DNA of 64,000 bases, from the NCBI GenBank assembly GCA_041661545.1, contig JBAZUH010000001.1:83877-147876 (forward strand), read 5' to 3'. Made by a program: the position numbers and the translations under genes. The DNA comes from Candidatus Staskawiczbacteria bacterium. GTDB lineage: Bacteria; Patescibacteriota; Minisyncoccia; Minisyncoccales; Staskawiczbacteraceae. The stretch's first letter is position 1. Every line of letters begins with the position of its first letter. A model generated the notes under the pieces. The model was not told the DNA's origin, ran no database searches, and worked only from the letters and a program-made list of their open reading frames with translations. Below, in pieces: positions 146 through 63,607 of this stretch.

Positions 146-174
146 TTGACAATAGGCTTATATTATGCTATAAT
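146..174 (+). promoter_or_regulatory. Consensus sigma70-type promoter of GC-rich cassette A
   Basis: TTGACA 146-151, 17-nt spacer, extended -10 TGcTATAAT 166-174. Confidence 0.75.
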
Positions 175-180
175 AAATAT

Positions 181-382
181 ATAGGATAAATTGACAGCAA
201 CTTGAAAACATAGCTAGTGAGTACAGTTTCTTGCGCCTCGCCTTGCGGGGCATAGAAAACTGTATTCACTACGAATTCAGTAAGCCATCTGTAGGCTTTG
301 ATTAGCTTAACGTCGACTCGCCGAAAGGCAATAAAGTTTTTATCGACGTTGGTTAAACAGAAAGACCAAACCATTAAATATC
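181..382 (+). ncRNA. Structured 5' leader RNA, copy A (unclassified family, homologous to 9427-9629)
   Basis: About 200 nt homologous to the second copy. Helices 217-230/255-269, 282-286/294-298 and 307-316/343-356 plus a GAAA-loop hairpin 320-329. Two helices covary between copies. Confidence 0.6.
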
Positions 383-634
383 GTGAAAACAGCAAAATTG
401 GAAACCGTGATCGCCGCCGGACCAGTTCCGGTAAAACAGAATCGCCGGCGTGCCTACGGCTGGCAATTTACGGTGACGGGACGTATTGTCACCGACTTCG
501 CGACGATCCGGGAAGGTGATGTTGTCCGTGCCCAATACTTGGGTGGAAACGGAATCCTGCAGGTGGAGCACCGGAAAGCTCTGGGCATCACAGCCGAGGA
601 CGGATACGACGTTTCGGTTCAGATTGTCGCCTGA
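383..634 (+). CDS. Orphan 83-aa protein (GTG start), GC-rich cargo ORF 1 of cassette A
   Basis: Open frame directly after the leader with coding-like codon pattern. No recognisable motif. Overlapping ORFs in other frames are expected from the high GC. Confidence 0.45.
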   Translation: MKTAKLETVIAAGPVPVKQNRRRAYGWQFTVTGRIVTDFATIREGDVVRAQYLGGNGILQVEHRKALGITAEDGYDVSVQIVA

Positions 635-786
635 ATTCAAATTTTCCGGCTTTTTGAAAATCCGGCTGGCTAAGCAGTAAACTTAGAAAGAGGGTTTCTT
701 GCAACCAGAATGCAAGATGACTTGGAGGCTTCAAAGTAACCTCCGACCAATTGAGCTCTTAAATTTATTTGAGGGTTCATAGGTTG
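635..786 (+). promoter_or_regulatory. 3' hairpin series ending in cassette-end module, copy 1
   Basis: Hairpins 646-665, 671-687, 698-718 and 724-745, then CCAAT-TTGAGCTCTTAAATTTATTTGAGGGTTCATAGGTTG (747-786). Confidence 0.55.
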
Positions 787-815
787 TAGCACATTTCAAA
801 AATTTAGAATAAAAT

Positions 816-964
816 CTTGTGGTGTATTTTGGAAATAAAAATTGTTTCTAAAATACACCGCAAGACAACTTGTTTTAATTTCGAAAGGGTTCCAAAATGG
901 AGCTCTTGGCACAAACGCGCCATAGAAATATCAAGATAAGTATTCCCTTGCGGTGTATTTCACC
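816..964 (+). promoter_or_regulatory. Putative translational switch upstream of cargo ORF 2
   Basis: CTTGYGGTGTATTT occurs at 816-830 and 947-960, with its complement at 850-864. The third copy ends 5 nt before the ATG. Confidence 0.4.
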
Positions 965-1354
965 ATGTTCACAAAAGAAAAAATGATGCAACTGATCGGC
1001 CACCTTAAGGCCGCCGGGGTGGCTCTGATGAGTCTACCAATTAATAATCCACTCCGCTGGAGTGGGCTGGCGGTCAACCCGTGGAACGTAACCTCGGGCT
1101 GCCCCGAGAACAACCCATTGATGGCGCTTTGCTCCGCAGCGGGATGGGACGAACAAAACTCTTCTCAAATGAAGTGGGACGATATTCGGGTTTCCCTCGA
1201 GCCTATCGATGTGAAAATCTGGGGTCCGGGGGGCGTTCGTTGCGCCACCGTGCAGGTAGTGCCACGTCGTGGTCGACTTGTCGCTCAATTCTTCGTCACC
1301 GAAGAAGAAGGAGAGGAACTTGTTGTTGGGTTCACCGCACAAGTTGGGGATTAG
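965..1354 (+). CDS. Orphan 129-aa protein, GC-rich cargo ORF 2 of cassette A
   Basis: ATG at 965 inside track ORF 953..1354. Acidic C-terminus, no recognisable motif. Confidence 0.45.
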   Translation: MFTKEKMMQLIGHLKAAGVALMSLPINNPLRWSGLAVNPWNVTSGCPENNPLMALCSAAGWDEQNSSQMKWDDIRVSLEPIDVKIWGPGGVRCATVQVVPRRGRLVAQFFVTEEEGEELVVGFTAQVGD

Positions 1355-1527
1355 CCTTGGAAATCCTCATGGGTTAAATAAACACCCATCGAAAAAAGTT
1401 CTAAACCAGGCGGTTTCTAATTTCCGCGGAAAAAAATTGGCGCGTGTCTCTTGAAGACATCCCTTGCCAGGAGCGTTATTACCTGGTCGTTGACCCTTCC
1501 TTTAAATAGGTCGTGGTCCTTTCATGA

Positions 1528-1603
1528 GGAGCGAGTAGAGTTCCATCTCTGCCGCTCCTCCAATCACTTGAGCTCTTAAATTTATTTGAGGGTTCATAGG
1601 TTG
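1528..1603 (+). repeat. Cassette-end module, copy 2
   Basis: Hairpin GGAGCG/CGCTCC 1528-1558, CCAAT, then a 36-nt block (1568-1603) identical to 751-786. Confidence 0.7.
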
Positions 1604-1610
1604 AAAGATT

Positions 1611-1636
1611 AAAAAACCCCCGAAAGGGGATTTTTT
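1611..1636. terminator. Bidirectional terminator (cassette A / recR)
   Basis: A-run, hairpin cccccgaaagggg, T-run. Confidence 0.75.
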
Positions 1637-1652
1637 GTTGTGCGACAGTTGT

Positions 1653-6492: not shown

Positions 6493-8181
6493 ATGGAACA
6501 AGAAACACGTCAGTGCCAAACATGTAAAAAAGATTTTGAAACAAGGCCTGCGGATTTAACTTTTTATGAGCAGATAAAAGTTCCTTCACCAAAGCTCTGT
6601 CCACCTTGTCGCATGGAAAGACGTTTGGCTTTTAGAAATGAAAGAACCCTTTACCGTAGAACTTGTGATTTGTGTAAAAAAGAGGGCGTTTCTTTGTACC
6701 CAAACGGAACCCCTTTTCCAGTTTATTGCCATAAATGCTGGTGGAGTGATGGATGGGATCCTGTTTCTTTTGCTATGGATTGGGATAAATCCAGGCCATT
6801 TTTTGATCAGTTTTTAGAATTGAAAAATAAAGTACCGCGAATTGCTTTACTTGTTATAGACAGCATTAATAGCGATTACACAAATAACAGCGCTGAAAAT
6901 AAAAATTGTTATTTGCTTTTTGCGTCAGAAAATGATGAAGATTGCATCTATGGCAGGCTTATTCAGCGTTGCAAAACATCAGTTGATTGCACTTTTCTAT
7001 ATGACTCTGAACTTTGTTATGGGTGTACTGACTGCAAAAAATGTTTTAGGTGTATGTTCTCTGAGAGACTGCAAGATAGCATAGAGGTCCTTTTCTCTTT
7101 TGATATGCACAATTGCCAAAATTGTATTCTTTGCACCAATGGTCGCAATTTGAATTATTGTATTGAAAATAAACAATGCACTAAAGAAGAATTTGAAGCA
7201 AAAAAAGCAGAAATTTTTGTTAGTCACGATTCTATTGAAAAAGCCAAGGAAAGATATAGCGAATTACGGGCAAAAGCTGTTGTAAAATATGCTTCATCGA
7301 TAAAATGTAACGATGTTACTGGAGACTACATGTGGAACTGTCATGAAGGTGTGAACGTATTTGATTTTGGTAACTCAAAAAATTCATCTTATATTGCTGA
7401 TGGGGAAGATGCAATTGATTGTCACGACTGTAATAATCTTTATTTTAAGCCAGAGCGACTATATAACGTTATGGCAGCTTTGCAGAGTTCTAATTGCATT
7501 GTTGGAATTTATGATATGTATTGTAGTGAATCACAATATTTTGATAGTTGTTATAATTGCCAGAGTTGTTTTGGTTGTTGCGGATTAAATAAAAAAAAAT
7601 ATTATATTTTAAATAAAGAATATTCTAAAGAAAGATATCTTGAAATTAAAGAAGAAGTTGTAGCTCAAATGAAAAACGATGGCATATACGGAGAATTTTT
7701 TCCTGCGAAGCATTCACCATTTGGCCATAATGAAACATTAGCGCAAGAATATTTCCCAATTACTGAAAAAGAAGCTAAAGAAAAAGGTTTTAATTGGCAG
7801 AATCAAACCACAGGCACATATGGTAAGGAAACCATCAAAGAAGAAGACATGCCACAAACTATAGCAGAAGTTACAGGAGATATTGTAAATCAGGTTTTGG
7901 TTTGTAAAGATTGTAAAAAGAATTTTAGAATCACAAAAGCTGAATTTGATTTTTATAAAAGAATGAATCTTCCATTGCCACATAAAGATTTTGAGTGTCG
8001 GCACCAAGATAGAATGAAAAAGCGTAATCCGCGTAAGTTATGGCATAGATCATGTATGTGTGAACTAAAAAATCATGCCCACGGCGAAGAAAAATGCTCA
8101 AGTGAATTTGAAACATCTTATGCTCCAGGTAGACCAGAGATAGTTTATTGTGAGCAGTGCTATCAGCAAGAAGTATCTTAA
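6493..8181 (+). CDS. Poly-cysteine double zinc-ribbon protein, paralog 1
   Basis: N- and C-terminal CxxC..FY..CPxCR modules, CxxC-rich duplicated core, C-terminal YAPGRPEIVYCEQCYQQEV. Paralogous to 27454-32582. Confidence 0.8.
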   Translation: MEQETRQCQTCKKDFETRPADLTFYEQIKVPSPKLCPPCRMERRLAFRNERTLYRRTCDLCKKEGVSLYPNGTPFPVYCHKCWWSDGWDPVSFAMDWDKSRPFFDQFLELKNKVPRIALLVIDSINSDYTNNSAENKNCYLLFASENDEDCIYGRLIQRCKTSVDCTFLYDSELCYGCTDCKKCFRCMFSERLQDSIEVLFSFDMHNCQNCILCTNGRNLNYCIENKQCTKEEFEAKKAEIFVSHDSIEKAKERYSELRAKAVVKYASSIKCNDVTGDYMWNCHEGVNVFDFGNSKNSSYIADGEDAIDCHDCNNLYFKPERLYNVMAALQSSNCIVGIYDMYCSESQYFDSCYNCQSCFGCCGLNKKKYYILNKEYSKERYLEIKEEVVAQMKNDGIYGEFFPAKHSPFGHNETLAQEYFPITEKEAKEKGFNWQNQTTGTYGKETIKEEDMPQTIAEVTGDIVNQVLVCKDCKKNFRITKAEFDFYKRMNLPLPHKDFECRHQDRMKKRNPRKLWHRSCMCELKNHAHGEEKCSSEFETSYAPGRPEIVYCEQCYQQEVS

Positions 8182-9314: not shown

Positions 9315-9341
9315 AAAAAACCGCTGTTGAGGCGGTTTTTT
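9315..9341 (+). terminator. dnaX terminator, left copy of a duplicated terminator
   Basis: aaaaaaccgctgttgaggcggtttttt, nearly identical to 10363-10389. Confidence 0.75.
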
Positions 9342-9391
9342 GTTGCACAAAACAAACAATGGGCCCTTAGGCTGAAACGGGCGGCTATGAC

Positions 9392-9420
9392 TTGACAAGC
9401 CTACTTAAATATGCTATAAT
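9392..9420 (+). promoter_or_regulatory. Consensus sigma70-type promoter of GC-rich cassette B
   Basis: TTGACA 9392-9397, 17-nt spacer, TGcTATAAT 9412-9420. Confidence 0.75.
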
Positions 9421-9426
9421 GAATAT

Positions 9427-9629
9427 ATAGGATAAATTGACAGCAATTTGAAAATATACTAAGTGAATGCAGGTTTTTGCGTATTGCCCAGTGCAGTGCA
9501 TAGCAACCTGTATTCACTACGAATTCAGGGAGCTACCGTAAGCTCTGATTAATTTAACGTCGAATAGCCGAAAGGCATTGGAAAACTTTTCCGACGTTGG
9601 TTAAAGCGGAAATACAGAACAACCGAATC
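9427..9629 (+). ncRNA. Structured 5' leader RNA, copy B
   Basis: Homologous to 181-382. Helices 9463-9474/9506-9517, 9530-9534/9541-9545 and 9554-9562/9592-9604. Confidence 0.6.
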
Positions 9630-10190
9630 ATGAAAATATCGTTTAAATACGAGCAAACCCGTAGCAATATCGTTCGTTTTGCGCTTCGCAATGGGGCGGA
9701 TTCGAGCACGATGTTGAAAATCAGTGGCCTCGTTATCCCGCAGATTGCGGAGGCGGACTTCGCCTCCCTCGAAATCTGCGAGGGGGACGAAACCACGGTG
9801 TGGGACGCCCGTGCGGGATTGGTAGACCTGCTCGCCAGCAGGTGGGGTCTCTGCCAGAGTCAATGGGGCCGGCGAGTGGAGATTTCCACGAGCTGTGGGA
9901 AGCTCGTCGGGTCGACTTCGTCAGCCGAGGATATTTCCATTGATGCCATTGGTGACGTGGTTATCCGCGGATTTCGGCCGGAAACCTACGAGGGGGCGTA
10001 CAACGCCTACCTCGAAGGAACTGGCTGGTCCCTCGAGAAGACCGAAGGGCATTGGGAAATCGAGAAGGTGAAGTCCACTCTCGGCGAATTCTCATCGTTG
10101 GAGGACTACGAGCAAGCCCGTGTCAACGACGGCATGGGTTGCCGGTATCTGGAGCTTGAGGCTCCTGAGCCCGAGAAGATGCCCGCCTGA
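9630..10190 (+). CDS. Orphan acidic 186-aa protein, GC-rich cargo ORF of cassette B
   Basis: ATG at 9630. G-rich first and GC-rich third codon positions (GAG, GCC, GGC, CTC codons). No recognisable motif. Confidence 0.6.
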   Translation: MKISFKYEQTRSNIVRFALRNGADSSTMLKISGLVIPQIAEADFASLEICEGDETTVWDARAGLVDLLASRWGLCQSQWGRRVEISTSCGKLVGSTSSAEDISIDAIGDVVIRGFRPETYEGAYNAYLEGTGWSLEKTEGHWEIEKVKSTLGEFSSLEDYEQARVNDGMGCRYLELEAPEPEKMPA

Positions 10191-10325
10191 GTTCGTCTTT
10201 TTCCGGCTTTATGAAAAGCCGGCATGGGTATTGAGATCGTATCTCGAATACCTCGGGTCCTAACCCCGCGTGTGGCAATACGCCATTAATGGAGAACACG
10301 ATAAAGTTCTCCCCATTATTGAGCT
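10191..10325 (+). promoter_or_regulatory. 3' hairpin series ending in cassette-end module, copy 3
   Basis: Hairpins 10203-10222, 10229-10252 and 10291-10312, then CCATTATTGAGCT (10313-10325). Collinear with 635-760. Confidence 0.55.
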
Positions 10326-10361
10326 AATAACAATTTGTTTTTATTTCATATTGGGTAAATT

Positions 10362-10389
10362 AAAAAAACCGCCGTTGAGGCGGTTTTTT
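10362..10389 (+). terminator. Cassette B terminator, right copy of the duplicated terminator
   Basis: aaaaaaaccgccgttgaggcggtttttt. Confidence 0.75.
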
Positions 10390-10511
10390 GGTTGGCTCAC
10401 TTGGCTAAATAATTTTAAGTAAAAAGTTTATTTAACAGAAAAAAGTTATCCACATACTTGTGTGTTCTAAAAAGGTTATAATAATATAATAATATTTACC
10501 TTTTTAAATTT

Positions 10512-12467: not shown

Positions 12468-13967
<1,500 letters not shown>

Positions 13968-15630: not shown

Positions 15631-15666
15631 AAAAAAAGAGCCCCAGTAGTAGAGATTACTATGGGG
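15631..15666 (-). terminator. Terminator of GC-rich cassette C
   Basis: Minus-strand hairpin ccccatagtaat...tactactgggg followed by a U-run. Confidence 0.6.
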
Positions 15667-15686
15667 TAAACGCAAAAGCGCATAAA

Positions 15687-16058
15687 TCAGTGGACGCCGT
15701 TGCCCCAGGGAGTCTGCAGGCAGGCTTTGCGCCTGGCTTTCATTTTTGCCACTTGCCTTTTGATGGCGGTGACTGCGGGCCTTTCGCGCTGGAGAAGAAA
15801 GGTGTGTGGATGGATTTGTCCCTTGCCTTCTTGGCTCCAAATGCAGACGTCAATTTTCAAAGTGTGCCGGCTGTTCCAGAAATTCTGCGCTTCTTTGAAT
15901 GAGCACTCCCACAGGTAGTGGCGTTTGCCATCGGAGCATCTCTGCCAGAAGCCATCGATGACATTGGGGAGATTCTTTGCAATAACTTCGTTGGCGTGCG
16001 CTACATCTTTGCCGGTTGGTTCGATAAACCATCTATGAAACCTTGTTGTGTTGGCCAT
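15687..16058 (-). CDS. Orphan 123-aa protein, GC-rich cassette C
   Basis: ATG at 16058 downstream of minus-strand promoter TTGACA (16131-16126)-N17-TATTGT. Coding-like codon pattern, no motif recognised. Confidence 0.5.
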   Translation of the reverse strand: MANTTRFHRWFIEPTGKDVAHANEVIAKNLPNVIDGFWQRCSDGKRHYLWECSFKEAQNFWNSRHTLKIDVCIWSQEGKGQIHPHTFLLQRERPAVTAIKRQVAKMKARRKACLQTPWGNGVH

Positions 16059-16206
16059 AATTGTCGGGGTTGGTTGTGAATGTTCAAGGGGGAGCAAGGT
16101 TAACAATATATCATTTTTAGGTAATTGTCAACCTGTTTTAATGCTATATTTCACTATTGATTCGCTTGCAAATTAGGAGTATAATTAATTAATATAATAT
16201 AGATAT

Positions 16207-20336: not shown

Positions 20337-20354
20337 AAGAGATCGATATTCACA

Positions 20355-20433
20355 AAGGGGGTCGGGGAAATTGGGTATTTCCCCGTGTAGGAAATTATTC
20401 AAAACCGTGGGTTTTGAAGGAGCGAGCCAGAAC
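20355..20433 (+). repeat. Two-hairpin repeat element, copy 1 (after gyrB)
   Basis: 52 nt identical to 23265-23316. Hairpins cggggaaat/atttccccg and ttcaaaacc/ggttttgaa, ending in GAGCGAGCCAGAA. Confidence 0.8.
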
Positions 20434-21551: not shown

Positions 21552-21770
21552 TATGGCTCGGCAACAAATTTTTCTACGCTCGGAATTTCTGCACGAGAAG
21601 CACAGCGTCGTCTAAAATTGTATTTTAAATCTATACAATTTTATCCGCGCTTCTCACTCGGTGCCCACAACGGGGCACCTGCGTGAAGTCATTCTCTTAG
21701 CAGAAATCCCTCGCTTAGTTTATTGCCTCGCTAAAATTTATTTGGCTCGCTACGAATTCATTATCTCGCT
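21552..21770 (+). repeat. CTCGCT-box structured repeat, copy R1
   Basis: CGCTCGG + arm ggaatttctgc ... gcagaaatcc + CCTCGCT, then tandem TTYATTNNCTCGCT boxes at ~19-nt spacing. Confidence 0.65.
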
Positions 21771-21807
21771 TTGAAAATTAACAAATTTATTGAAAATTCC
21801 AAAAAGC

Positions 21808-23264: not shown

Positions 23265-23343
23265 AAAGGGGGTCGGGGAAATTGGGTATTTCCCCGTGTA
23301 GGAAATTATTCAAAACAGAGGGTTTTGAAAGAGCGAGCCAGAA
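23265..23343 (+). repeat. Two-hairpin repeat element, copy 2 (after rplK)
   Basis: Same element as 20355-20433. Confidence 0.8.
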
Positions 23344-23385: not shown

Positions 23386-23488
23386 ATTACAAATTTAGAA
23401 ACAACCCTTTAATCGGGGTTGATTTTTGTTTTGGCGAAATGGTAGAATAATTTTAACCACTAACTGAACATTGAAAAGGAGAGAGAAC

Positions 23489-23974
23489 ATGAAAATTCCA
23501 ATCAAAATTTTGAGAGATGGAGCGCAAGTTCCCGAACGAGCTTCTGCTGGAGCAATAGGCTACGATGTTTGGGCTTCTGCTGTTTTATCTAAGGAAACAA
23601 AGAAAGTTTTGCAAGAATTGCCGTTTACGTTGGAGCCCGGCAAAAGTGTGCTTATAGGTATAGGCGTAGCCTTCGCCGTTCCTTGGCCGTGGATGTGTGA
23701 TGTAAGGCCAAGATCTGGTCTTGCCAACAAGCACGACATTGAGCTTTCCAATTCTCCCGGAACAATTGACCCAGACTTTCGTGGTGAAGCGGGCGTTTTA
23801 CTCAGGAATAGGGGTGACAAAAGCTTCACAATTGAACGGGGAATGAGAATAGCCCAACTCGTGTTTATAAAAGCTCAAATTCCGGAAATGGAATTGGCTG
23901 ATGAACTACCCGGAACCAAGCGTGGCGCGGGTGGGTTTGGTTCAACTGGACTATTTGAAATAGAAAAAGGTTGA
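23489..23974 (+). CDS. dut: dUTP diphosphatase
   Basis: GGAG-type RBS, motifs AGAIGYD, RSGLA, GTIDPDFRGE, RGxGGFGSTG. Confidence 0.9.
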   Translation: MKIPIKILRDGAQVPERASAGAIGYDVWASAVLSKETKKVLQELPFTLEPGKSVLIGIGVAFAVPWPWMCDVRPRSGLANKHDIELSNSPGTIDPDFRGEAGVLLRNRGDKSFTIERGMRIAQLVFIKAQIPEMELADELPGTKRGAGGFGSTGLFEIEKG

Positions 23975-27453: not shown

Positions 27454-29217
27454 ATGGAATATCAGTCGGAAACAAAAAATTGTCAAAATTGTAAGCAAGA
27501 CTTTGTCATAGAGCCTGATGATTTTGCGTTTTATGAAAAAATGAAAGTACCTGCACCAACCTGGTGCCCAGAGTGTAGATTCAGGCGCAGAATTATATGG
27601 AGAAATGAACGTAAATTATTCCGTGGCAAGAGCGCCTTAAGTGGAAAAAATCTTTTCACGCTTTTTTCTCCGGAATCAGGATATACAATTTACCATAATG
27701 AGGAATGGTGGGGAGGATATGATCCGCTTGTTTATGGACAAGAGGTAGATTTTACGCGACCATTTCTAACTCAACTTTTTGAATTAAACAAAAAAGTTCC
27801 CAAACCATCTGGAAGTAGAATAAGAATGGCTAACAGTGAGTATTCTGATAACGCTTCTGACCTTAAAAATTGTTACTTACTTTTTAATTCTAACTTTACC
27901 GAGGACAGCGCATATGGAAACGGCATAGACCATTGCCAACTCTGTTTTGACAATTCCCATATTCAAAACTGTGAACGATGTTACCATTCTTTTTGGTTAA
28001 CAAATTGTTATCAAGCTCATTTTTCTTCTAGATGTGAGGACTGTACAAATATTTGGTTTTCAAAAGATTGTCGAAGTTGCAATAATTGTATTGGTTGTGT
28101 AAATTTACGTACAAAAAATTATTGCATTTTTAATGAGCAATATTCAAAAGAAGAGTACCTTACCAAACTTAAAGAATTTAATTTTTATTCCTGGAAAAAC
28201 GTTGTTCAAATGAATAAAAATGCTAAAGAATTTTGGCTCAAGTTTCCTAATAAGTTTATGCAAGGAATAAAAAACCAGAATGTGTCGGGCGAATTTATTA
28301 CGCACTCTAAAAATGTTTTAGATAGCTATCTTATAAGAGAAAGCGAAAATTTACGTTATGTGCAATATTCTCAAGTGCCCAGTTCAAAAGATTGCTATGA
28401 TTTATCACTTGGCGGGTGCAACGCCGAACAAATTTATGAATCCTCTGTTTGCGGTTGGGGAGCTTCTAATATTAAATTTTGTTGGGAATGCTGGCATGAA
28501 GCTTTTAACATGGAGTATTGCATGTATTGCCATGGTTCGTCTAATCTTTTTGGATGTTCAGGAGTACAAAAAAAGCAATATTGCATTTTGAATAAACAAT
28601 ACACAAAAGAAGAATATGAGGCAATGGTTTTAAAAATAAAAAAGCACATGGACAATATGCCTTACATGGACAAATTGGGAAGGGTTTATAAATATGGCGA
28701 ATTTTTTCCTGTAGAAGCTTCGCCTCACGCTTATACAAGTAGTATCTCTCCAGATCATTTTCCTTTAACAAAAGAAGAAGCGCTTTTGCAAGGGTTCCAT
28801 TGGGAAGATCCAAATCCTACAGAATATCAAACTACTAAAGATGCTAAAGAGCTCCCAGACAATGTTGAAGGCGTTGGCTTTGAAGTATTAAAAGAAATTT
28901 TAAAATGTGAAAAATGTGGTAAAGCTTATCGAATTATAGAACCAGAACTACAGTTTTTAAAACAAATAGGAATTTCTGTCCCGCATTGGTGTGTTGATTG
29001 CAGGCATAATGACCGTATAAGTCAAAGGAATAGGGCGGTATTTTATGACCGCATATGTCAGTGTAAAGGGAAGGAATCGGAAAATAAAATATATAAAAAT
29101 TTTGTAGCTCACTCGCATGATAAAAGCCCGTGCACAAATAAATTTAAAACATCGTATGCGCCAGATAGGCCCGAGATAGTTTATTGCGAGCGATGTTACC
29201 AACAAGAAGTAATATAA
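27454..29217 (+). CDS. Poly-cysteine double zinc-ribbon protein, paralog 2
   Basis: Same architecture as 6493-8181. Starts 3 nt after the thyA stop. Confidence 0.8.
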   Translation: MEYQSETKNCQNCKQDFVIEPDDFAFYEKMKVPAPTWCPECRFRRRIIWRNERKLFRGKSALSGKNLFTLFSPESGYTIYHNEEWWGGYDPLVYGQEVDFTRPFLTQLFELNKKVPKPSGSRIRMANSEYSDNASDLKNCYLLFNSNFTEDSAYGNGIDHCQLCFDNSHIQNCERCYHSFWLTNCYQAHFSSRCEDCTNIWFSKDCRSCNNCIGCVNLRTKNYCIFNEQYSKEEYLTKLKEFNFYSWKNVVQMNKNAKEFWLKFPNKFMQGIKNQNVSGEFITHSKNVLDSYLIRESENLRYVQYSQVPSSKDCYDLSLGGCNAEQIYESSVCGWGASNIKFCWECWHEAFNMEYCMYCHGSSNLFGCSGVQKKQYCILNKQYTKEEYEAMVLKIKKHMDNMPYMDKLGRVYKYGEFFPVEASPHAYTSSISPDHFPLTKEEALLQGFHWEDPNPTEYQTTKDAKELPDNVEGVGFEVLKEILKCEKCGKAYRIIEPELQFLKQIGISVPHWCVDCRHNDRISQRNRAVFYDRICQCKGKESENKIYKNFVAHSHDKSPCTNKFKTSYAPDRPEIVYCERCYQQEVI

Positions 29218-29221
29218 ATAT

Positions 29222-30901
29222 ATGGACCACCAATCAGAGACTAAAAATTGTCAGAATTGTAAACAAGACTTTGTAATAGAGCTTGATGATTTTGCATTTT
29301 ACGAAAAAATGAAAGTACCCGCACCAACTTGGTGTCCTGAGTGTAGACAATATCGGCGTTTTGTGTGGAGAAATGAGCGGAATTTATATCGTAGAGACTG
29401 TGATCTTTGTAAGAAAAGCATGATAACTATATATTCGTCTGATAAACCATATAAAGTTTACTGTCCAACGTGTTGGTGGAGTGATAAATGGTCTGCACTA
29501 GATTATGGTCAAGATTTTGATTTTTCTAAACCGTTTTTCCCGCAATTACAAGAGTTGCAACTCCAAGTTCCCAGAATTGCCCTTTTAACTAAAAATAGTA
29601 TTAATTCTGAATATACTAATCACGCAAATAACAATAAAAATTGTTATCTTTCTTTTGCTGTATTTGATTGTGAAGATATTCTTTATTCTAGCGAGATATT
29701 TGATCAAGCTAAGAGCCTATGCGATTGTTATAGGATAGAGCACGGAGGTAGCTTGCTTTATGAGTGTATCCATTCTGATAAATGTTACCAATGCCAATAC
29801 GGTATTTTTCTTAAAGATTGTATGGGCTGTATGTATTGTTATGATTGTCGCGGATGTCAAAATTGTTTTCTTTCTTCAAATTTACGCAATAAGCAATATT
29901 ATTTTTTAAATAAAAAATATACAAAAGAAGAATATGAAGAAAAAATCAAAAATTTTGATTTTAGCTCTTATGTTGTTCGAGCCAAATTATATAATGATTA
30001 TATAAATCTTATTAAAAATAAGTCTATTCATCGTTTTGCAATTATTGATAGATCTAATGATGTTACGGGTAACCTTATTATTAATTCTAAAAGAGCATAT
30101 CAATCTTTTGAAGTGAGCAACATGGAAGATACTAAATATTCAAGAGTTGCTACAGACGTAAAAGATTCGATGGATGGCTATAAAATGGGATTTCGTAGTG
30201 AGCTTATTTACGAATGTCATGCTTTAATTCATGATTATAACGTAATGTTTAGCCATTTAAGTTATGATAATTCTCATTTACAGTATTGTGATACTTGTCA
30301 TAACAGCGAAAATCTTTTTGGATGTGTATGTATGAAACAGGGGAGATACGCAATTTTAAATAAACAGTATTCTGAAAAAGAGTATTCTGTGTTGCGCGAA
30401 AAAATTATTGAACATATGAGAAACACAGGCGAATACGGAGAATTTTTTCCACCTAAGTTATCGCCATTTGGTTATGACGAAACACAGGGGCAAGTTCATG
30501 CACCTCTTACAAAAGAGAAAACATTGGAGTGGGGGTTTAAATGGTCGGGTAATCTGCCCGGAACGTTTGGTAAAGAAACATTAAAACCAGAAGAGATTAA
30601 AGATAGTATTAAAGACGTGGATGAAGGCATTCTTAAAGAAGCATTACGTTGTATAAAGTGTAAAAAGAATTATAATATTGTAAGGGCTGAGTTAGATTTT
30701 TATAAACACGAGAACATTCCTGTTCCACGAAAATGTCCAGATTGTCGTTATTTAGATCGTGTTGCTCTTCGTTTGCCGTGTAAGCTTTGGCACAGAAGAT
30801 GTATGAAACAAGGTTGCCAGAATGAATTTGAAACTCCTTACTCGCCAGATAGGCCCGAGATAGTTTATTGCGAGCAATGTTACCAACAAGAAGTAATATA
30901 A
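29222..30901 (+). CDS. Poly-cysteine double zinc-ribbon protein, paralog 3
   Basis: Same architecture, with a 4-nt gap to the previous gene. Confidence 0.8.
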   Translation: MDHQSETKNCQNCKQDFVIELDDFAFYEKMKVPAPTWCPECRQYRRFVWRNERNLYRRDCDLCKKSMITIYSSDKPYKVYCPTCWWSDKWSALDYGQDFDFSKPFFPQLQELQLQVPRIALLTKNSINSEYTNHANNNKNCYLSFAVFDCEDILYSSEIFDQAKSLCDCYRIEHGGSLLYECIHSDKCYQCQYGIFLKDCMGCMYCYDCRGCQNCFLSSNLRNKQYYFLNKKYTKEEYEEKIKNFDFSSYVVRAKLYNDYINLIKNKSIHRFAIIDRSNDVTGNLIINSKRAYQSFEVSNMEDTKYSRVATDVKDSMDGYKMGFRSELIYECHALIHDYNVMFSHLSYDNSHLQYCDTCHNSENLFGCVCMKQGRYAILNKQYSEKEYSVLREKIIEHMRNTGEYGEFFPPKLSPFGYDETQGQVHAPLTKEKTLEWGFKWSGNLPGTFGKETLKPEEIKDSIKDVDEGILKEALRCIKCKKNYNIVRAELDFYKHENIPVPRKCPDCRYLDRVALRLPCKLWHRRCMKQGCQNEFETPYSPDRPEIVYCEQCYQQEVI

Positions 30902-30905
30902 ATAT

Positions 30906-32582
30906 ATGGAGCATCAATTAGAAAATAAAAAATGTCAAAACTGCGAAAAAGATTTTACCATAGAGCTTGATGATTTTGCGTTTTATGAAAAAATGAAAGT
31001 ACCTGCACCCGTTAATTGCCCGAGATGTCGTTTTCAGTGGAGAACACTTTGGCGCAATGAAATGAATCTTTATAGCAGAAAGTGTGAGCTTTGTGGCAAA
31101 TCAATTGTGGCAATGTATAATCAAAACTCTCCTTACACCGTATATTGCCAAGATTGTTGGTTGTCTGATAGATGGAACCCCGCTGATTATGCAATGGACT
31201 ATGACGAGAGCAGGCCATTTTTTGATCAGGTAGGGGCGTTGTTGAAAAAAGTTCCCAAAGCCGGAACTTTTATTTCCAGCGATGTCGGAATAAATATAAA
31301 TACTGAATATGCAAATTTTGCCGGTGGTTTGAAGGATTGCTATCTAGTTTTTAACTCGAGCCCGGACGTAGAAAATTGTTGCTATTCAAGGGGTTTAACC
31401 CATTGCAAAGACGTCTTCGATGGTTACTCTCAAGATAAAGTTGAGAATGGGTATGAAGCCCTTAATGCGCATAATTCTGCTGGCATCATTCACGCTCAAA
31501 ATGTGAATGATTGTATTAATTGTTGGTATGTGCATAGTTGTTCCGGATGTCAGAATTGTTTTGGTTGCGTGAATTTGCGTCATAAATCATATTACTTTTT
31601 AAACCAGCCTCTCTCTAAGGAAGATTACGAGAAAAAAATAAAAGAAATAAAAGGAAGCTATGTAAAAATGGAGGCCTTTAAGAAAGATTTTAATGATCTG
31701 CTCTTGGTGTCACCGCACCGCGAGAACAATAATTTGAAAAGTCCAAAATCTTTTGGAGAATATATTTTTGAATCAAAAAATTGTCGGGATTCTTTCGAAG
31801 TCTCTTTTAGCGAAGATTCGCGTTATCTTTTTTCTAACAAATATGTTAAAGATTGCTATGACCTGCTTGGTCATGGGCGCCAGAGCGAACTGTTACTTGA
31901 TAACGTTGCAGTGGGCACCTCTCAAAGAGTCATTGGGTCTTGGTGGACAATAACTTCTCATGATATATTTTATAGTTTTGGTTTGCGCTCTTGTGAAGAT
32001 TGTTTTGGGTGTGATAGCTTAAGGAATGCTCGTTATTGTATTTTGAATAAGCAATATAGTGAGGAAGATTACAAAAAAATCAAAGAAAATATAATTGCAG
32101 AATTAAAAGAAAAAAATCTTTTTGGTTTATATTTTCCACCTTCAATCAGCCTATTTGCCTATAATGAAACTATTGGTCAAGATAATTATCCTCTCACCAA
32201 AGAAGAGGCTTTAAAATTAGGTTTTAGATGGGAGGATAACATGCAGATTACCAAAGGAAAAGAAACTATAAAAACATCAGATATTCCAGACCACATTAAA
32301 GATGTTGAAGAATCTATTTTAAAAGAGATTTTTGCCTGTAAAGATTGTGAGAGAAATTATAAAATAATACAAGCAGAATTCCAGTTCTATAAAAAAATTA
32401 ATTTGCCACTGCCTAGAAAATGTTTTTTTTGCAGGCATAATGATAGAATAAAAAGGCGAGGCCCAATGGAAATTTATGACAGAAAGTGCACTAAATGTGG
32501 CAAAGATATTAAAACAAATTATGCGCCAGATAGGCCCGAGATAGTTTATTGCGAGCGATGTTACCAACAAGAAGTAATATAA
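30906..32582 (+). CDS. Poly-cysteine double zinc-ribbon protein, paralog 4
   Basis: Same architecture, with a 4-nt gap to the previous gene. Confidence 0.8.
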   Translation: MEHQLENKKCQNCEKDFTIELDDFAFYEKMKVPAPVNCPRCRFQWRTLWRNEMNLYSRKCELCGKSIVAMYNQNSPYTVYCQDCWLSDRWNPADYAMDYDESRPFFDQVGALLKKVPKAGTFISSDVGININTEYANFAGGLKDCYLVFNSSPDVENCCYSRGLTHCKDVFDGYSQDKVENGYEALNAHNSAGIIHAQNVNDCINCWYVHSCSGCQNCFGCVNLRHKSYYFLNQPLSKEDYEKKIKEIKGSYVKMEAFKKDFNDLLLVSPHRENNNLKSPKSFGEYIFESKNCRDSFEVSFSEDSRYLFSNKYVKDCYDLLGHGRQSELLLDNVAVGTSQRVIGSWWTITSHDIFYSFGLRSCEDCFGCDSLRNARYCILNKQYSEEDYKKIKENIIAELKEKNLFGLYFPPSISLFAYNETIGQDNYPLTKEEALKLGFRWEDNMQITKGKETIKTSDIPDHIKDVEESILKEIFACKDCERNYKIIQAEFQFYKKINLPLPRKCFFCRHNDRIKRRGPMEIYDRKCTKCGKDIKTNYAPDRPEIVYCERCYQQEVI

Positions 32583-35232: not shown

Positions 35233-35361
35233 AACTTCGCTCGGCAGTCAATTTTCTGCTACCGCCATTGATACGCTTCGCGTCTAAATGGCTTAGTCAG
35301 GCACTTCGTGTCCTGAAATACGCTGAAAATTTACTGCCTCGCTCTACTTTATTGTTTCGCT
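35233..35361 (+). repeat. CTCGCT-box structured repeat, copy R2
   Basis: 35238-35343 differs from 58599-58704 at 3 positions over 106 nt. Confidence 0.8.
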
Positions 35362-36286: not shown

Positions 36287-36478
36287 TAGTTTTGATTATT
36301 TTTTCTTCGCTCAATAATGATTCTTTGCTAGCGTTCGCTCGCCAGCGCGGGCTCACTCAGGCTTCGGTAATTTTCCCGCTTCGCGGGACCAAGCAAAATT
36401 ACCTGCAGGGTACGCTTCGAATTCATTATCTCGCTTCGAAAAACTTTATTTGGCTCGCTTAAAAGTTCATTGCTTCGC
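36287..36478 (+). repeat. CTCGCT-box structured repeat, copy R3 (between miaB and miaA)
   Basis: Arms ggtaatttt/aaaattacc around cccgcttcgcggg, then boxes ttcattatctcgct, tttatttggctcgct and ttcattgcttcgct. Confidence 0.65.
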
Positions 36479-57839: not shown

Positions 57840-57868
57840 TTGACAAGGCAGTTAAGATATGCTATAAT
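57840..57868 (+). promoter_or_regulatory. Consensus promoter of a small RNA gene
   Basis: TTGACA 57840-57845, 17-nt spacer, TGcTATAAT 57860-57868. Confidence 0.7.
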
Positions 57869-57874
57869 TAAGTA

Positions 57875-58035
57875 TATTGAGATAAGCTATAAATTAAGGG
57901 CGTTTAGGTGATTTCTCTTTATTGAGCGACCTCCCGGCTCCGGCTAGGAGACTCGAGATATAAAGTTCGGCAAATGGAAAATTTTTATAATTTTTCGCAA
58001 GTCTCGGACAAGAGAGATCTCCCAAGCGCCCTTTT
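57875..58035 (+). ncRNA. Candidate ~160-nt sRNA (6S-like rod with A/U-rich centre)
   Basis: 22-bp closing helix 57898-57919/58010-58031 (with G-U pairs) followed by UUUU. Internal hairpin 57926-57953. No ORF. Confidence 0.5.
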
Positions 58036-58202
58036 AAATTTTGACCCTTTACTTTGCGGACATGTTAAGATATTGATGAAATTGAATTTTCTCACTGACA
58101 TACGATTACTCCGCAAAGCGAAGGGTTGACATATTGTAAAAAAAGAATAGAATTAAGCTAATTAAAGGTCGCAGAATGATAATAAGTTTAAATGATAAAG
58201 CA

Positions 58203-58523
58203 ATGGCAAAAGAATTAGATTTAGAATTTCTTGAGTACATTGTCAAAGCATTAGTTGATAATCCTAAAGATGTCAAAGTTGACCGAAAGGTTGATGAAAT
58301 GGGAGTATTACTTTCATTGAAAGTAAATCCAGCAGACATGGGTCAAATAATTGGCCGAGAAGGATCAACAGCCAAGGCAATCAGAAACTTAGTCCGAATT
58401 GTAGGACTAAAGAATCACGCCAGAGTGAACCTCAAAATTGAGGAACCAGAAGGCGGACGTGCTCCAAAACCAGAACAAAAACAAGAAGTATTAACAGACG
58501 ACATCGATAATATTTCTTTGTAA
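58203..58523 (+). CDS. KH-domain RNA-binding protein (YlqC/UPF0109)
   Basis: LVDNPKDVKV...GQIIGREGSTAKAIRNLV. Conserved position after rpsP. Confidence 0.85.
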   Translation: MAKELDLEFLEYIVKALVDNPKDVKVDRKVDEMGVLLSLKVNPADMGQIIGREGSTAKAIRNLVRIVGLKNHARVNLKIEEPEGGRAPKPEQKQEVLTDDIDNISL

Positions 58524-58575: not shown

Positions 58576-58741
58576 GATCTTTGCTCGGGCATCTTTATCG
58601 CTCGGCAGTCAATTTTCTGCTAACGCCATTGATACGCTTCGCGTCTAAATGGCTTGGTCAGGCACTTCGTGTCCTGAAATACGCTGAAAATTAACTGCCT
58701 CGCTTAGTTTATTGCCTCGCTATAAATTTTTTATCTCGCTT
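58576..58741 (+). repeat. CTCGCT-box structured repeat, copy R4
   Basis: Near-identical to R2, followed by boxes tttattgcctcgct and ttttttatctcgct. Confidence 0.8.
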
Positions 58742-58751
58742 AAAATCTAAT

Positions 58752-59435
58752 ATGATAAAGTTCGATGTAATTACAATTTTTCCAGAAATGTTTGGCTCTT
58801 ATTTAAAAGAGAGTTTGATTTCGCGTGCACAGAAAAAAAAGTTTATAAAAGTTAATTTACATAATTTAAGAAAATGGACAACCGACAATCATAAAACAGT
58901 TGATGGTAGGCCCTTTGGCGGGGGATTGGGAATGGTATTAAAAGTAGAGCCAATATATAAGTCTGTAAAGTTTATAAAGTCAAAAGCTAAAAGTCAAAAA
59001 ACTAAAATTATACTTTTTACGCCAAGGGGAGAAAAGTTTAATCAAAAATTAGCTTATAAGTTATCAAAATTAGATCAAATAATTTTTATTTGTGGAAGAT
59101 ACGAGGGCGTAGATGAAAGAGTGGCAGAAAAAATTGCTGATATGCAAATTTCTATTGGTGACTATGATTTAATGGGTGGTGAATTGCCCGCAATGGTAGC
59201 AATAGAAACTATTTCAAGATTAGTTTCTGGAGTAATTGGCAAAGAACAGTTGCTCAAAGAAAGGGTATCAAAAACAGGTGGATTTTTAGAATATGCTCAA
59301 TATACGCGCCCAGAAGTTTATAAAGTTCGTAAAGTTAATAAAGTTGAAAGTTGGCGAGTGCCGGAGGTTTTATTGTCGGGAGATCATAAAAAAATAGACG
59401 AATGGAAAAAATTACACGGCAAGGTTATTGAATAA
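58752..59435 (+). CDS. trmD: tRNA (m1G37) methyltransferase
   Basis: FDVITIFPEMF, GRYEGVDERV, SIGDYDLMGGELPA. Confidence 0.95.
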   Translation: MIKFDVITIFPEMFGSYLKESLISRAQKKKFIKVNLHNLRKWTTDNHKTVDGRPFGGGLGMVLKVEPIYKSVKFIKSKAKSQKTKIILFTPRGEKFNQKLAYKLSKLDQIIFICGRYEGVDERVAEKIADMQISIGDYDLMGGELPAMVAIETISRLVSGVIGKEQLLKERVSKTGGFLEYAQYTRPEVYKVRKVNKVESWRVPEVLLSGDHKKIDEWKKLHGKVIE

Positions 59436-62800: not shown

Positions 62801-62829
62801 TTGACATAGCATTATAACTATGCTATGAT
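62801..62829 (+). promoter_or_regulatory. Near-consensus promoter of GC-rich cassette F
   Basis: TTGACA 62801-62806, 17-nt spacer, TGcTATGAT 62821-62829. Confidence 0.7.
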
Positions 62830-62925
62830 ATATTTATGGACCTTGAGATACAAATCGTTTTTGGCGCAGGTAACTGCAGGCGATTTTATTGATTGGTCAG
62901 AAATCACACACACCACCAAGTTACC

Positions 62926-63480
62926 ATGAATAACGTATCAAGATGGATATTGATCAGTTTGTCGGCCGGTTTAGTTGCCGTTATAGGCAGCGGCTGGATT
63001 CACAAAAACCTCCAAGATACGGAAGTGAGGGCCTATACTCAGGCCTCGCTCCGAGAGACCGCCAACATCCTCGTGAAGAAAGCCAAGCCGTACATGATGG
63101 ACGTGGATTACTACGTGTACTCCATTAGGCTCCGCGAGCTGGAGAACCGCCCGATATTTGATCGGGTGGATGCTGAAATTCTCCGTGTCGGTGACAGCTA
63201 TGAGGATGTCGCCGCCGACGTCGTGGCGCAACTGCGACACGCCGGGTTCAGCGACACTGAGATTGAGGAGCTCTGGAGTGCCCAGTGGAAGGTTCGGCTC
63301 ATGTCCACCTGCTGGCAGGTGGATGAGTTCAAGGGGATCGTTTTGGACGGTGACAAGCCGGCCAAGAGGTGCACCCTGGAGGAGCTTTGTCGGCTTCAGT
63401 CGGCTGAATTTCTCCCTGCTAAAGCAGAACTCGACCGACTCCTCGCGGAGGCGAAGATGCCCGTCGTGCTGGTTGAATAA
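62926..63480 (+). CDS. Orphan 184-aa membrane-anchored protein, GC-rich cassette F
   Basis: ATG at 62926, N-terminal TM WILISLSAGLVAVIGSGWI, strongly GC-rich third codon positions, no motif recognised. Confidence 0.6.
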   Translation: MNNVSRWILISLSAGLVAVIGSGWIHKNLQDTEVRAYTQASLRETANILVKKAKPYMMDVDYYVYSIRLRELENRPIFDRVDAEILRVGDSYEDVAADVVAQLRHAGFSDTEIEELWSAQWKVRLMSTCWQVDEFKGIVLDGDKPAKRCTLEELCRLQSAEFLPAKAELDRLLAEAKMPVVLVE

Positions 63481-63520
63481 GCCGGTTCATGCGCTGGGGA
63501 GAAGTCCTCCTCAGCGCCCG

Positions 63521-63556
63521 CCCCTTAGTAAAACTCTTTACTATTGGGGCTTTTTT
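63521..63556 (+). terminator. Cassette F terminator
   Basis: cccc...gggg extended hairpin plus T-run, preceded by a second hairpin at 63491-63517. Confidence 0.65.
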
Positions 63557-63607
63557 GTTGCTTATTTTTGCGGAAAAATATAAAATGAATAAATAAATAG
63601 GGCAGTT

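Follow-up and report, generated by a model that had tools for sequence, protein, structure and literature searches.

The stretch of DNA analysed in this work, hereafter the window, comprises 64,000 nucleotides (positions 83,877 to 147,876, forward strand) of the 737,971-bp contig JBAZUH010000001.1, which belongs to a metagenome-assembled genome (MAG) of Candidatus Staskawiczbacteria, within the Candidate Phyla Radiation (CPR)/Patescibacteria. Near its left end lies an element that we named cassette A, a real and autonomous transcription unit of about 1.5 kb encoded on the + strand and formed by two tandem gene units. Each unit is built of a structured 5' leader, a small open reading frame (ORF) with a high G+C content (GC) and an array of 3' hairpins closed by a 43-nt hairpin, the end module. 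The consensus promoter sits on unit 1 and the terminator on unit 2, and 57% of the whole is untranslated. Cassette A belongs to a Patescibacteria family in which a recognisable RNA frame surrounds unrelated cargo genes. This frame consists of the TGCTATAAT promoter, a YUUGAAAA motif, a leader helix (P1), a GCC-GAAA-GGC module, an A/C-rich ribosome landing zone devoid of a Shine-Dalgarno (SD) sequence, and the 3' hairpins.

All the elements that an earlier note, made from the letters of this DNA, had listed for cassette A were found where it placed them, to within a few bases. The left boundary is a bidirectional 17-bp terminator hairpin (80-116), which lies outside the cassette. The promoter (146-174, + strand as are all the internal elements) is of the sigma-70 type and agrees with the consensus at 12 of 12 positions, with TTGACA at 146-151, a 17-nt spacer and a TG-extended TATAAT at 169-174. 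It is followed by a structured leader of about 200 nt (181-382) containing the YUUGAAAA motif (201-208), helix P1 (215-271), which is a long hairpin with conserved internal loops supported by covariation, and helix P3 (302-356), which encloses a GCC-GAAA-GGC-AAU mini-hairpin (320-332), a module that reappears in the related cassettes, in either the 5' or the 3' untranslated region. ORF1 (383-634) starts with GTG and encodes 83 amino acids (isoelectric point, pI, 9.6). Downstream of it are the first 3' hairpin (UUUUCCGGCUUUUUGAAAAUCCGGC, 642-666), which is common to a second cassette of the window (cassette B), three further discrete hairpins (668-743) and end module 1 (744-786), a 12-bp hairpin with three G.U pairs placed inside a 5-bp outer stem. 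The region between both cistrons folds into a perfect 24-bp AU-rich hairpin (815-865) and into the leader 2 hairpin (885-907), where the end-module arms AGGGUUC and GAGCUCUU appear in swapped order, and it includes a 14-nt segment (947-960) that is the exact complement of 851-864. ORF2 (965-1354) encodes 129 amino acids from its ATG (pI 5.1) and its 3' untranslated region (UTR) carries a hairpin series (1355-1559) and end module 2 (1561-1603). The downstream terminator (1611-1636), a G+C hairpin with a T run, is common to the convergent recR gene (1653-2276, - strand). The start codons of the cassette ORFs have no SD sequence and are preceded instead by an A/C-rich unpaired stretch; such starts fit the host, since only 4 of 46 of its genes use SD sequences.

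Both ORFs of cassette A look coding, as they carry a codon-position signature and exceed the length expected by chance. The codon periodicity that had been proposed as a check was found in the two called frames, with GC at the three codon positions (GC1/GC2/GC3) following the order GC1 > GC2 < GC3 (0.66/0.44/0.60 in ORF1 and 0.62/0.43/0.58 in ORF2). At the first codon position the frequency of G was 0.46 in ORF1 and 0.39 in ORF2, and that of T was 0.11 and 0.14, respectively. This signature, universal in coding sequences, was weaker in the long antisense ORFs, with a first-position G of 0.30-0.32. When the same GC-rich blocks were shuffled preserving their dinucleotides, the length of ORF1 was matched by 18 of 1000 shuffles and that of ORF2 by none of 1000. 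In addition, the segments of ORF1 and ORF2 fold like their shuffles (z = -1.8 and -1.3, respectively), and the values obtained for the UTRs were -4.9 for the leader, -7.6 for the 632-967 spacer and -4.45 for the 1352-1645 tail. Cassette A therefore corresponds to an mRNA that codes for protein and whose structured UTRs are of unusual length.

The products of ORF1 and ORF2 are identical to two NCBI hypothetical proteins of the Candidatus Staskawiczbacteria MAG (WC711_00415 and WC711_00420, respectively). The earlier note had recognised neither of them, and its impression was borne out by profile, PDB and homologue searches, which gave self-matches only: neither ORF had a match in Pfam, PHROGs, NCBIfam or PADLOC, and the PDB sequence search retrieved nothing significant for the cassette proteins. 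An IMG/VR match to ORF1 (L044) was rejected as a seeded chance match in a GC-rich frame. From their sequences, both products are predicted to be soluble accessory proteins lacking a signal peptide, one of them basic and the other acidic.

The window has a GC of 34.7%, and the genes of the neighbourhood are housekeeping ones, among others recR, dnaB, cysS, a CDP-alcohol phosphatidyltransferase gene (pgsA-like), dnaX, purA, gatB, thyA, dnaE, gyrB, trmD and the RNase III gene. The GC of ORF1 and ORF2 is 0.56 and 0.54, and their GC3 is 0.60 and 0.58, versus 0.30-0.35 and 0.18-0.26 (about 0.2), respectively, in the host genes. The earlier description of the segment as GC-rich from one terminator to the other was correct for both ORFs and portions of their tails, to which the high GC is limited, but not for the leader (about 40%) nor for positions 701-1000 (34%). 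The first codons of the cassette A ORFs are AT-rich, and the composition steps fall at start and stop codons within one transcription unit.

The possibility of a misassembly was addressed with independent contigs. A Logan contig from run SRR18595301 was 100% identical to positions 1-780 of the window and ran 1,370 nt further upstream at 34% GC, where it includes a gene of the Zincin_1 family and a 240-aa partial ORF. This contig spans host genes, promoter, leader and ORF1, and breaks off only in the repeated end module, which is the behaviour expected of a k-mer assembler at a repeat. The left junction of cassette A was therefore confirmed by an independent assembly, whose support covers this junction. 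For the right junction (1600-1650), searches through recR, dnaB or both ORF2 versions yielded no record of an independent contig.

The frame of cassette A was found again 9 kb away in cassette B (9392-10393), located between dnaX and the next gene and containing a 186-aa GC-rich ORF (ORF B, GC3 0.70). Both leaders align with 80% identity (164-366 against 9410-9615), and the tails do so with 82% identity (628-666 against 10184-10223) over the last codons, the stop codon and the first 3' hairpin. All 48 predicted pairs of the leaders are kept and none is broken, with five compensatory double changes and five wobble changes. The ORFs begin in a similar context (AUC GUG AAA ACA in ORF1, AUC AUG AAA AUA in ORF B) and both end in GCC UGA. 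The homology fades only near the start codon and, as a consequence, the variable part is essentially the ORF body. No similarity was detected between ORF1 and ORF B, and none of the five cassette proteins of the window resembles another. The coding region of ORF B is itself unusually structured (z = -4.8), and the search of this ORF in Pfam, PHROGs, NCBIfam and PADLOC provided no match other than a sub-threshold one to DUF7881_N, which was absent from its homologues. The layout of cassette B is simpler, as an end-module-like sequence leads directly to the terminator, and the cassette is bracketed by near-identical 28-nt terminator copies (9315-9342 and 10363-10390). The common promoter, leader and first 3' hairpin of cassettes A and B, together with their unrelated ORFs, whose GC3 of 0.58-0.70 compares with about 0.2 in the host, agree with the proposal of the earlier note that cargo of foreign composition is held in a standardised frame. 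The TGCTATAAT promoter design is also common to cassettes A, B (9392-9420) and C (62801-62829) and to homologous cassettes of other organisms (loci L009 and L012). The exact extended promoter pattern occurs three times in the window (146, 9392 and 57840), or four if one mismatch is admitted (62801), when 0.1 would be expected by chance.

Beyond this genome, three homologues of ORF B were identified (53-67% identity), all of them on short contigs from Patescibacteria or metagenomes; no other homologues were found for any cassette protein. Substitutions in this family concentrate at third codon positions (0.54-0.67, versus 0.12-0.32 at position 2), and the ratio of nonsynonymous to synonymous divergence (dN/dS) was 0.07 for the closest pair, dS being saturated for the others. 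Both results demonstrate that ORF B is a genuine protein under purifying selection. Upstream of the homologues there is a YUUGAAA(A) motif and a long P1 hairpin, preceded in L009 and L012 by a TTGAC(A/T)-N17 promoter with TGCTATAAT. Another motif, CGCCGAAAGGCAAU, is located in the 5' UTR in A, B and L011/L012, and in the 3' UTR in L009 (twice) and L010. In family B the promoter, the UTRs and the ORF stay side by side, and the chromosomal surroundings change from genome to genome: the neighbouring genes are rarA/aroD in L009, hicBA in L010 and, in L011, a gpmI-like gene. Moreover, L009 and L010 have in common the UTR blocks AGUACGUUGAAAA, CGCCGAAAGGCAAUGG and GCUUCUCA, which indicates that all three components move as one. 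The genes beside the L009 cassette have 52-56% GC, like the cassette gene, and the flanks of L011 likewise match the GC of the gene. The earlier note had speculated on the host organism of an episymbiont as donor. However, the sole homologues of a cassette protein are in other Patescibacteria, two of the contigs having 50-57% GC with the same kind of leader and tail, and a GC-richer Patescibacterium or an element that circulates among Patescibacteria is consequently a better donor candidate than the host of the symbiont.

The leader structure was also conserved among these organisms. Across five leaders from four organisms, 84% of the cells of P1 were paired, versus 34-52% when the partner was slid, and 15 pairs were changed on both sides, versus 4-7 in the slid controls; none of 500 shuffles reached the observed values. 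When A/B and L012 are compared, four compensatory pairs appear in the P3 stem around the GNRA mini-hairpin. The covariance model built from P1 had no matches in the window other than the leaders of A and B, Rfam gave no credible match at E <= 10 on the L009-L012 loci, and no earlier description of the leader or of the cassette family was found in the literature consulted.

The end module is repeated within cassette A. Its two copies share 36 identical nt (751-786 and 1568-1603; none expected by chance) within a repeat that extends to 47 nt with 94% identity. On the + strand, the hairpins have energies of -18.1 and -16.3 kcal/mol (z about -5; -5.0 for module 1), versus -3.7 and -2.4 kcal/mol on the - strand (z about 0; 0.06 for module 1), because three of the twelve pairs are G.U. 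In addition, the 5' outer strands of both copies differ (CGACC in module 1, CAAUC in module 2) and still pair with GGUUG. The sense-only folding and the maintenance of this pairing imply that we are dealing with an RNA element, belonging to the sense transcript, and not with a DNA palindrome. Unit 2 (787-1556) is bracketed by the 47-nt direct repeats, and it may have joined unit 1 via recombination or duplication at the end module, in which case cassette A would derive from a cassette of the B type extended by another unit at this point.

The folding of the transcript also suggests how its two cistrons could be handled. A perfect long hairpin such as that at 815-865 is a classic substrate of RNase III, which is encoded in the window. 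Cleavage of this 24-bp hairpin would separate the two cistrons. The 3' arm of the hairpin (851-864) is exactly complementary to 947-960, and the resulting helix ends 4 nt before the AUG of ORF2. When folding was carried out with the 5' arm present, 947-960 remained open, and when it was carried out from position 845 on, the 14-bp helix 851-864/947-960 formed. This dependence suggests that the processing or transcription state tunes the translation of ORF2, as the freed 3' arm would re-pair with 947-960 beside the start codon. The swapped-arm hairpin (885-907) could in principle let the 5' and 3' ends of unit 2 pair. As a whole, the UTR structures would act at the RNA level, and the 5' and 3' hairpins would shield the mRNA from exonucleases. 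Stabilising hairpins and RNase III processing are known in polycistronic mRNAs such as the early mRNAs of phage T7, in the ompA-type 5' stabiliser and in the REP/BIME 3' stabilisers of E. coli. Cassette A resembles them in its long perfect hairpin between cistrons, its structured cistron ends and the presence of an RNase III gene. However, there is no sequence relationship, the processing of cassette A is deduced from its folding, and one leader is reused for unrelated foreign genes. In hok-type mRNAs the 5' and 3' ends pair and processing triggers refolding. Unit 2 is comparable in its complementary arms, placed in the 5' UTR (885-907) and in the end module (1561-1603), and in the helix 851-864/947-960 by the start codon, but neither cassette A protein is a small hydrophobic toxin, and there is no sign of a gene for an antisense RNA.

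Several other candidate RNA readings were discarded. CUGAUGAG (1024-1031) and GGGUUCAUAGG could suggest a hammerhead, another ribozyme or a tRNA-like structure, but the closing helices do not exist and Rfam gave no match. The 14-mer CGCCGAAAGGCAAT gave at least 120 matches in IMG/VR, mostly by chance, and the two copies found 1 kb apart in a phage contig of 56% GC (L069; 10858-10871 and 11871-11884) corresponded to ordinary Rho-independent terminators read on the reverse strand, with no relation to the motif of the cassette. Arrays of the TIGR-Tas type, with tandem units, box C/D motifs and a Nop-domain Tas gene, occur in Staskawiczbacteria (bioRxiv 10.64898/2026.09.09.750476). Such an array was rejected here, since positions 1-1700 contain no tandem repeats and ORF1, ORF2 and ORF B have no Pfam domain. 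The Nop family was not among the best 25 of the 79 families matched in the window.

Taken together, the best reading of these data, and one that we consider probable, is that cassette A and its relatives are moron-like, horizontally moving cassettes framed by conserved structures for mRNA stability and processing. According to it, the cargo genes, and probably whole cassettes, would have been acquired horizontally from GC-richer gene pools, the most plausible of which are those of other Patescibacteria or of the mobile elements that these harbour. The frame of promoter and UTRs was probably brought along by the cargo and not provided by the host genome. What is new here is the UTR scaffold, conserved and covarying, which unrelated orphan genes have in common in a streamlined CPR genome. 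The genomes of CPR/Patescibacteria are streamlined, yet this 1.5-kb unit spends more than half of its length on untranslated RNA structure of this kind, and the 64 kb, otherwise occupied by housekeeping genes, contain at least four GC-rich orphan cassettes. Should the family prove general, it would mark a route for acquiring and expressing accessory genes without recognisable mobile-element machinery. It would also provide a candidate new cis-acting RNA motif with a covariance model to look for it, and a pool of putatively strongly expressed orphan proteins, which are natural candidates for host-interaction or conflict functions.

A number of observations weigh against this interpretation. No donor of cassette A was identified. 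The exact leader, searched as 17-, 18-, 21- and 22-mers, was not found in the viral, genome and metagenome collections scanned, where flank BLAST left chance hits only, and the evidence for the family comes from no more than five leaders, belonging to four organisms. ORF1 and ORF2 matched only themselves among 5.8 billion protein clusters, and ORF2 again had a self-match only when all 1.84 billion representatives were scanned with phmmer; thus, their coding status rests on intrinsic statistics and on the analogy with cassette B, not on conservation. The length test of ORF1 was only moderately significant, and the single-sequence AlphaFold2 models of both proteins were unconfident, with predicted local distance difference test (pLDDT) values of 37 and 39. 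The RNase III cleavage, the mRNA stabilisation and the translational switch are all inferred from structure. Finally, the B homologue of L010 is GC-rich (GC3 0.58) among AT-rich flanks (hicBA, GC3 0.20-0.26) in spite of a saturated synonymous divergence, a pattern in which the high GC could be maintained by selection and not be the trace of a recent transfer.

This last point leads to an alternative that we regard as unlikely, namely that the GC-rich ORFs are long-resident native genes, or were born de novo from GC-rich structured RNA, and that mRNA selection (for stability or for avoiding AU-directed RNases) keeps their GC. The L010 homologue beside low-GC3 hicBA would be accounted for in this way, as would the fact that dS is at or near saturation for all B copies, the structure of the B coding region, the total orphan condition of ORF1 and ORF2, and the composition of leaders and tails, which is nearer to that of the host. 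Nevertheless, the neighbourhood of family B differs in every genome, and the flanks of L009 and L011 share the GC of the gene. Acquisition accounts better for the presence, within 64 kb, of five GC-rich ORFs that are unrelated to one another and each have their own promoter and terminator, and neither ORF1 nor ORF2 is unusually structured.

A more far-reaching version of the horizontal reading, to which we assign a low probability, would give the leading role to the RNA scaffold. In this undescribed cassette system of CPR/Patescibacteria, function and mobility would reside in P1, the GCC-GAAA-GGC module, the 3' array and the end module, the cargo ORFs would be swapped from one scaffold to another, the arrays would grow at the end module and the scaffold would do more than support expression. 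For instance, a dedicated RNA-binding or processing factor could control, localise or export GC-rich mRNAs in the episymbiotic lifestyle.

Since unit 2 lies between direct repeats of the end module, we also considered an integron-like array, in which the end module would be the recombination site of circular ORF cassettes served by a dedicated recombinase encoded elsewhere. As in integron cassettes, which combine an ORF with an attC site and are captured by IntI, the cargo is a variable single ORF with a conserved imperfect palindrome behind it, and frames that are otherwise homologous carry different cargo. However, the repeat of cassette A is a hairpin of the sense-strand RNA whose complementary strand is unstructured, it lacks the R''/L''/L'/R' cores of attC, and no GTTRRRY or RYYYAAC core sites were visible in the cassette sequence. 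The cassettes carry their own promoters and are scattered, from A to D, among housekeeping genes and not arrayed. Furthermore, neither an integrase nor an attI site was seen in the 64 kb, no integrase being among the best 25 of the 79 families obtained for the 50 large ORFs of the window. We regard an integron-like array as quite improbable.

A moron or the remnant of a prophage, or of another integrated Patescibacteria element, seems similarly improbable, even though an independent promoter-ORF-terminator unit of deviant GC content is precisely what Hendrix and colleagues called a moron (reviewed in PMC3594210), and orphan and fast-evolving cargo is frequent among phage genes. Like phage morons, cassette A has its own strong promoter and terminator, a deviant composition, cargo unrelated to its neighbours and signs of horizontal spread. 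It differs in that it is not placed in a phage or prophage: its neighbours are recR, dnaB, cysS and dnaX, the cassette DNA matched none of 50,697 phage and 72,556 plasmid records, no PHROG matches were obtained, and the leader motifs, ORF1, ORF2 and the B-family proteins had no IMG/VR relatives. The long covarying 5' and 3' UTRs common to different cargo are outside the definition of moron, as is the organization of cassette A in two tandem units split by a repeated RNA element. By analogy, the phage moron is the functionally closest known system to cassette A, but its phage context fails here.

The earlier note had offered a single large structured RNA as its alternative, the whole 1.45 kb being one noncoding RNA and the ORFs chance products of high GC. 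The extent and strong structure of the untranslated part would fit this possibility, and the high GC does yield antisense or off-frame ORFs of 88-102 aa. Against it stand the codon-position signature of the called ORFs, their length beyond chance and their shuffle-like folding, to which the sister ORF B adds a conserved protein under purifying selection in which third-position changes are dominant. In Rfam 15, only tRNAs reached the gathering score in the window, and no credible match was obtained at E <= 10 in positions 1-1700. With four intrinsic coding tests and no Rfam family match, the giant noncoding RNA is unsupported and, in our opinion, very improbable. Finally, an assembly chimera or a contaminating GC-rich fragment in an AT-rich contig, suspected from the sharp composition contrast within a MAG, is hardly credible, since the GC shifts at start and stop codons and not at arbitrary breakpoints, the AT-moderate leader is duplicated 9 kb away before another GC-rich ORF, and the independent Logan contig links host genes to ORF1 at 100% identity. 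A practical warning follows, as a sharp GC island in a CPR MAG need not be contamination.

Two more cassettes were identified in the window. Cassette C (62801-63560, + strand) contains a 184-aa GC-rich orphan ORF with an N-terminal hydrophobic segment, and cassette D (about 15640-16135, - strand) a 123-aa GC-rich orphan ORF of pI 10; each has its own TTGACA promoter. Their ORFs matched nothing in Pfam, NCBIfam or PADLOC. Both cassettes have a common terminator, GCCCC-[TAGTA..TACTA inner hairpin]-GGGGC-T run, which is unlike that of A and B. The four cassettes are dispersed among the housekeeping genes.

The third perfect promoter of this design (TTGACA-N14-TGCTATAAT) precedes a structured untranslated RNA of about 300 nt (57840-58175) and, after it, a KH-domain ORF (58176-58523) and trmD. 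This RNA had no Rfam match and presents near its 5' end the motif UUGAGAUA, as cassette C does. Intergenic arrays of CTCGCT (GCGAG on the other strand) with a period of 19-20 nt were located at 21704-21777, 36413-36459 and 58693-58753, and also just upstream of the window (L045, 1200-1370); they resemble iterons or arrays of transcription-factor sites. Dispersed intergenic repeats were also detected, one of 79 nt (20354-20432 and 23265-23343, 96% identity) and another of 107 nt (35237-35343 and 58598-58704, 97%). Four paralogous ORFs of about 560-590 aa, one at 6493-8181 and three in tandem at 27454-32582, have repeated Cys-containing motifs and a conserved C-terminal end, and the one tested (6493-8181) had no Pfam match. 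With regard to composition, the adenylosuccinate synthetase gene (12480-13967) has a GC of 0.45 and a GC3 of 0.38, and a dUTPase-family gene (23471-23974) lies in a GC-elevated stretch that peaks at 0.51 in 150-nt windows. Both of these nucleotide-metabolism genes may also have been acquired.

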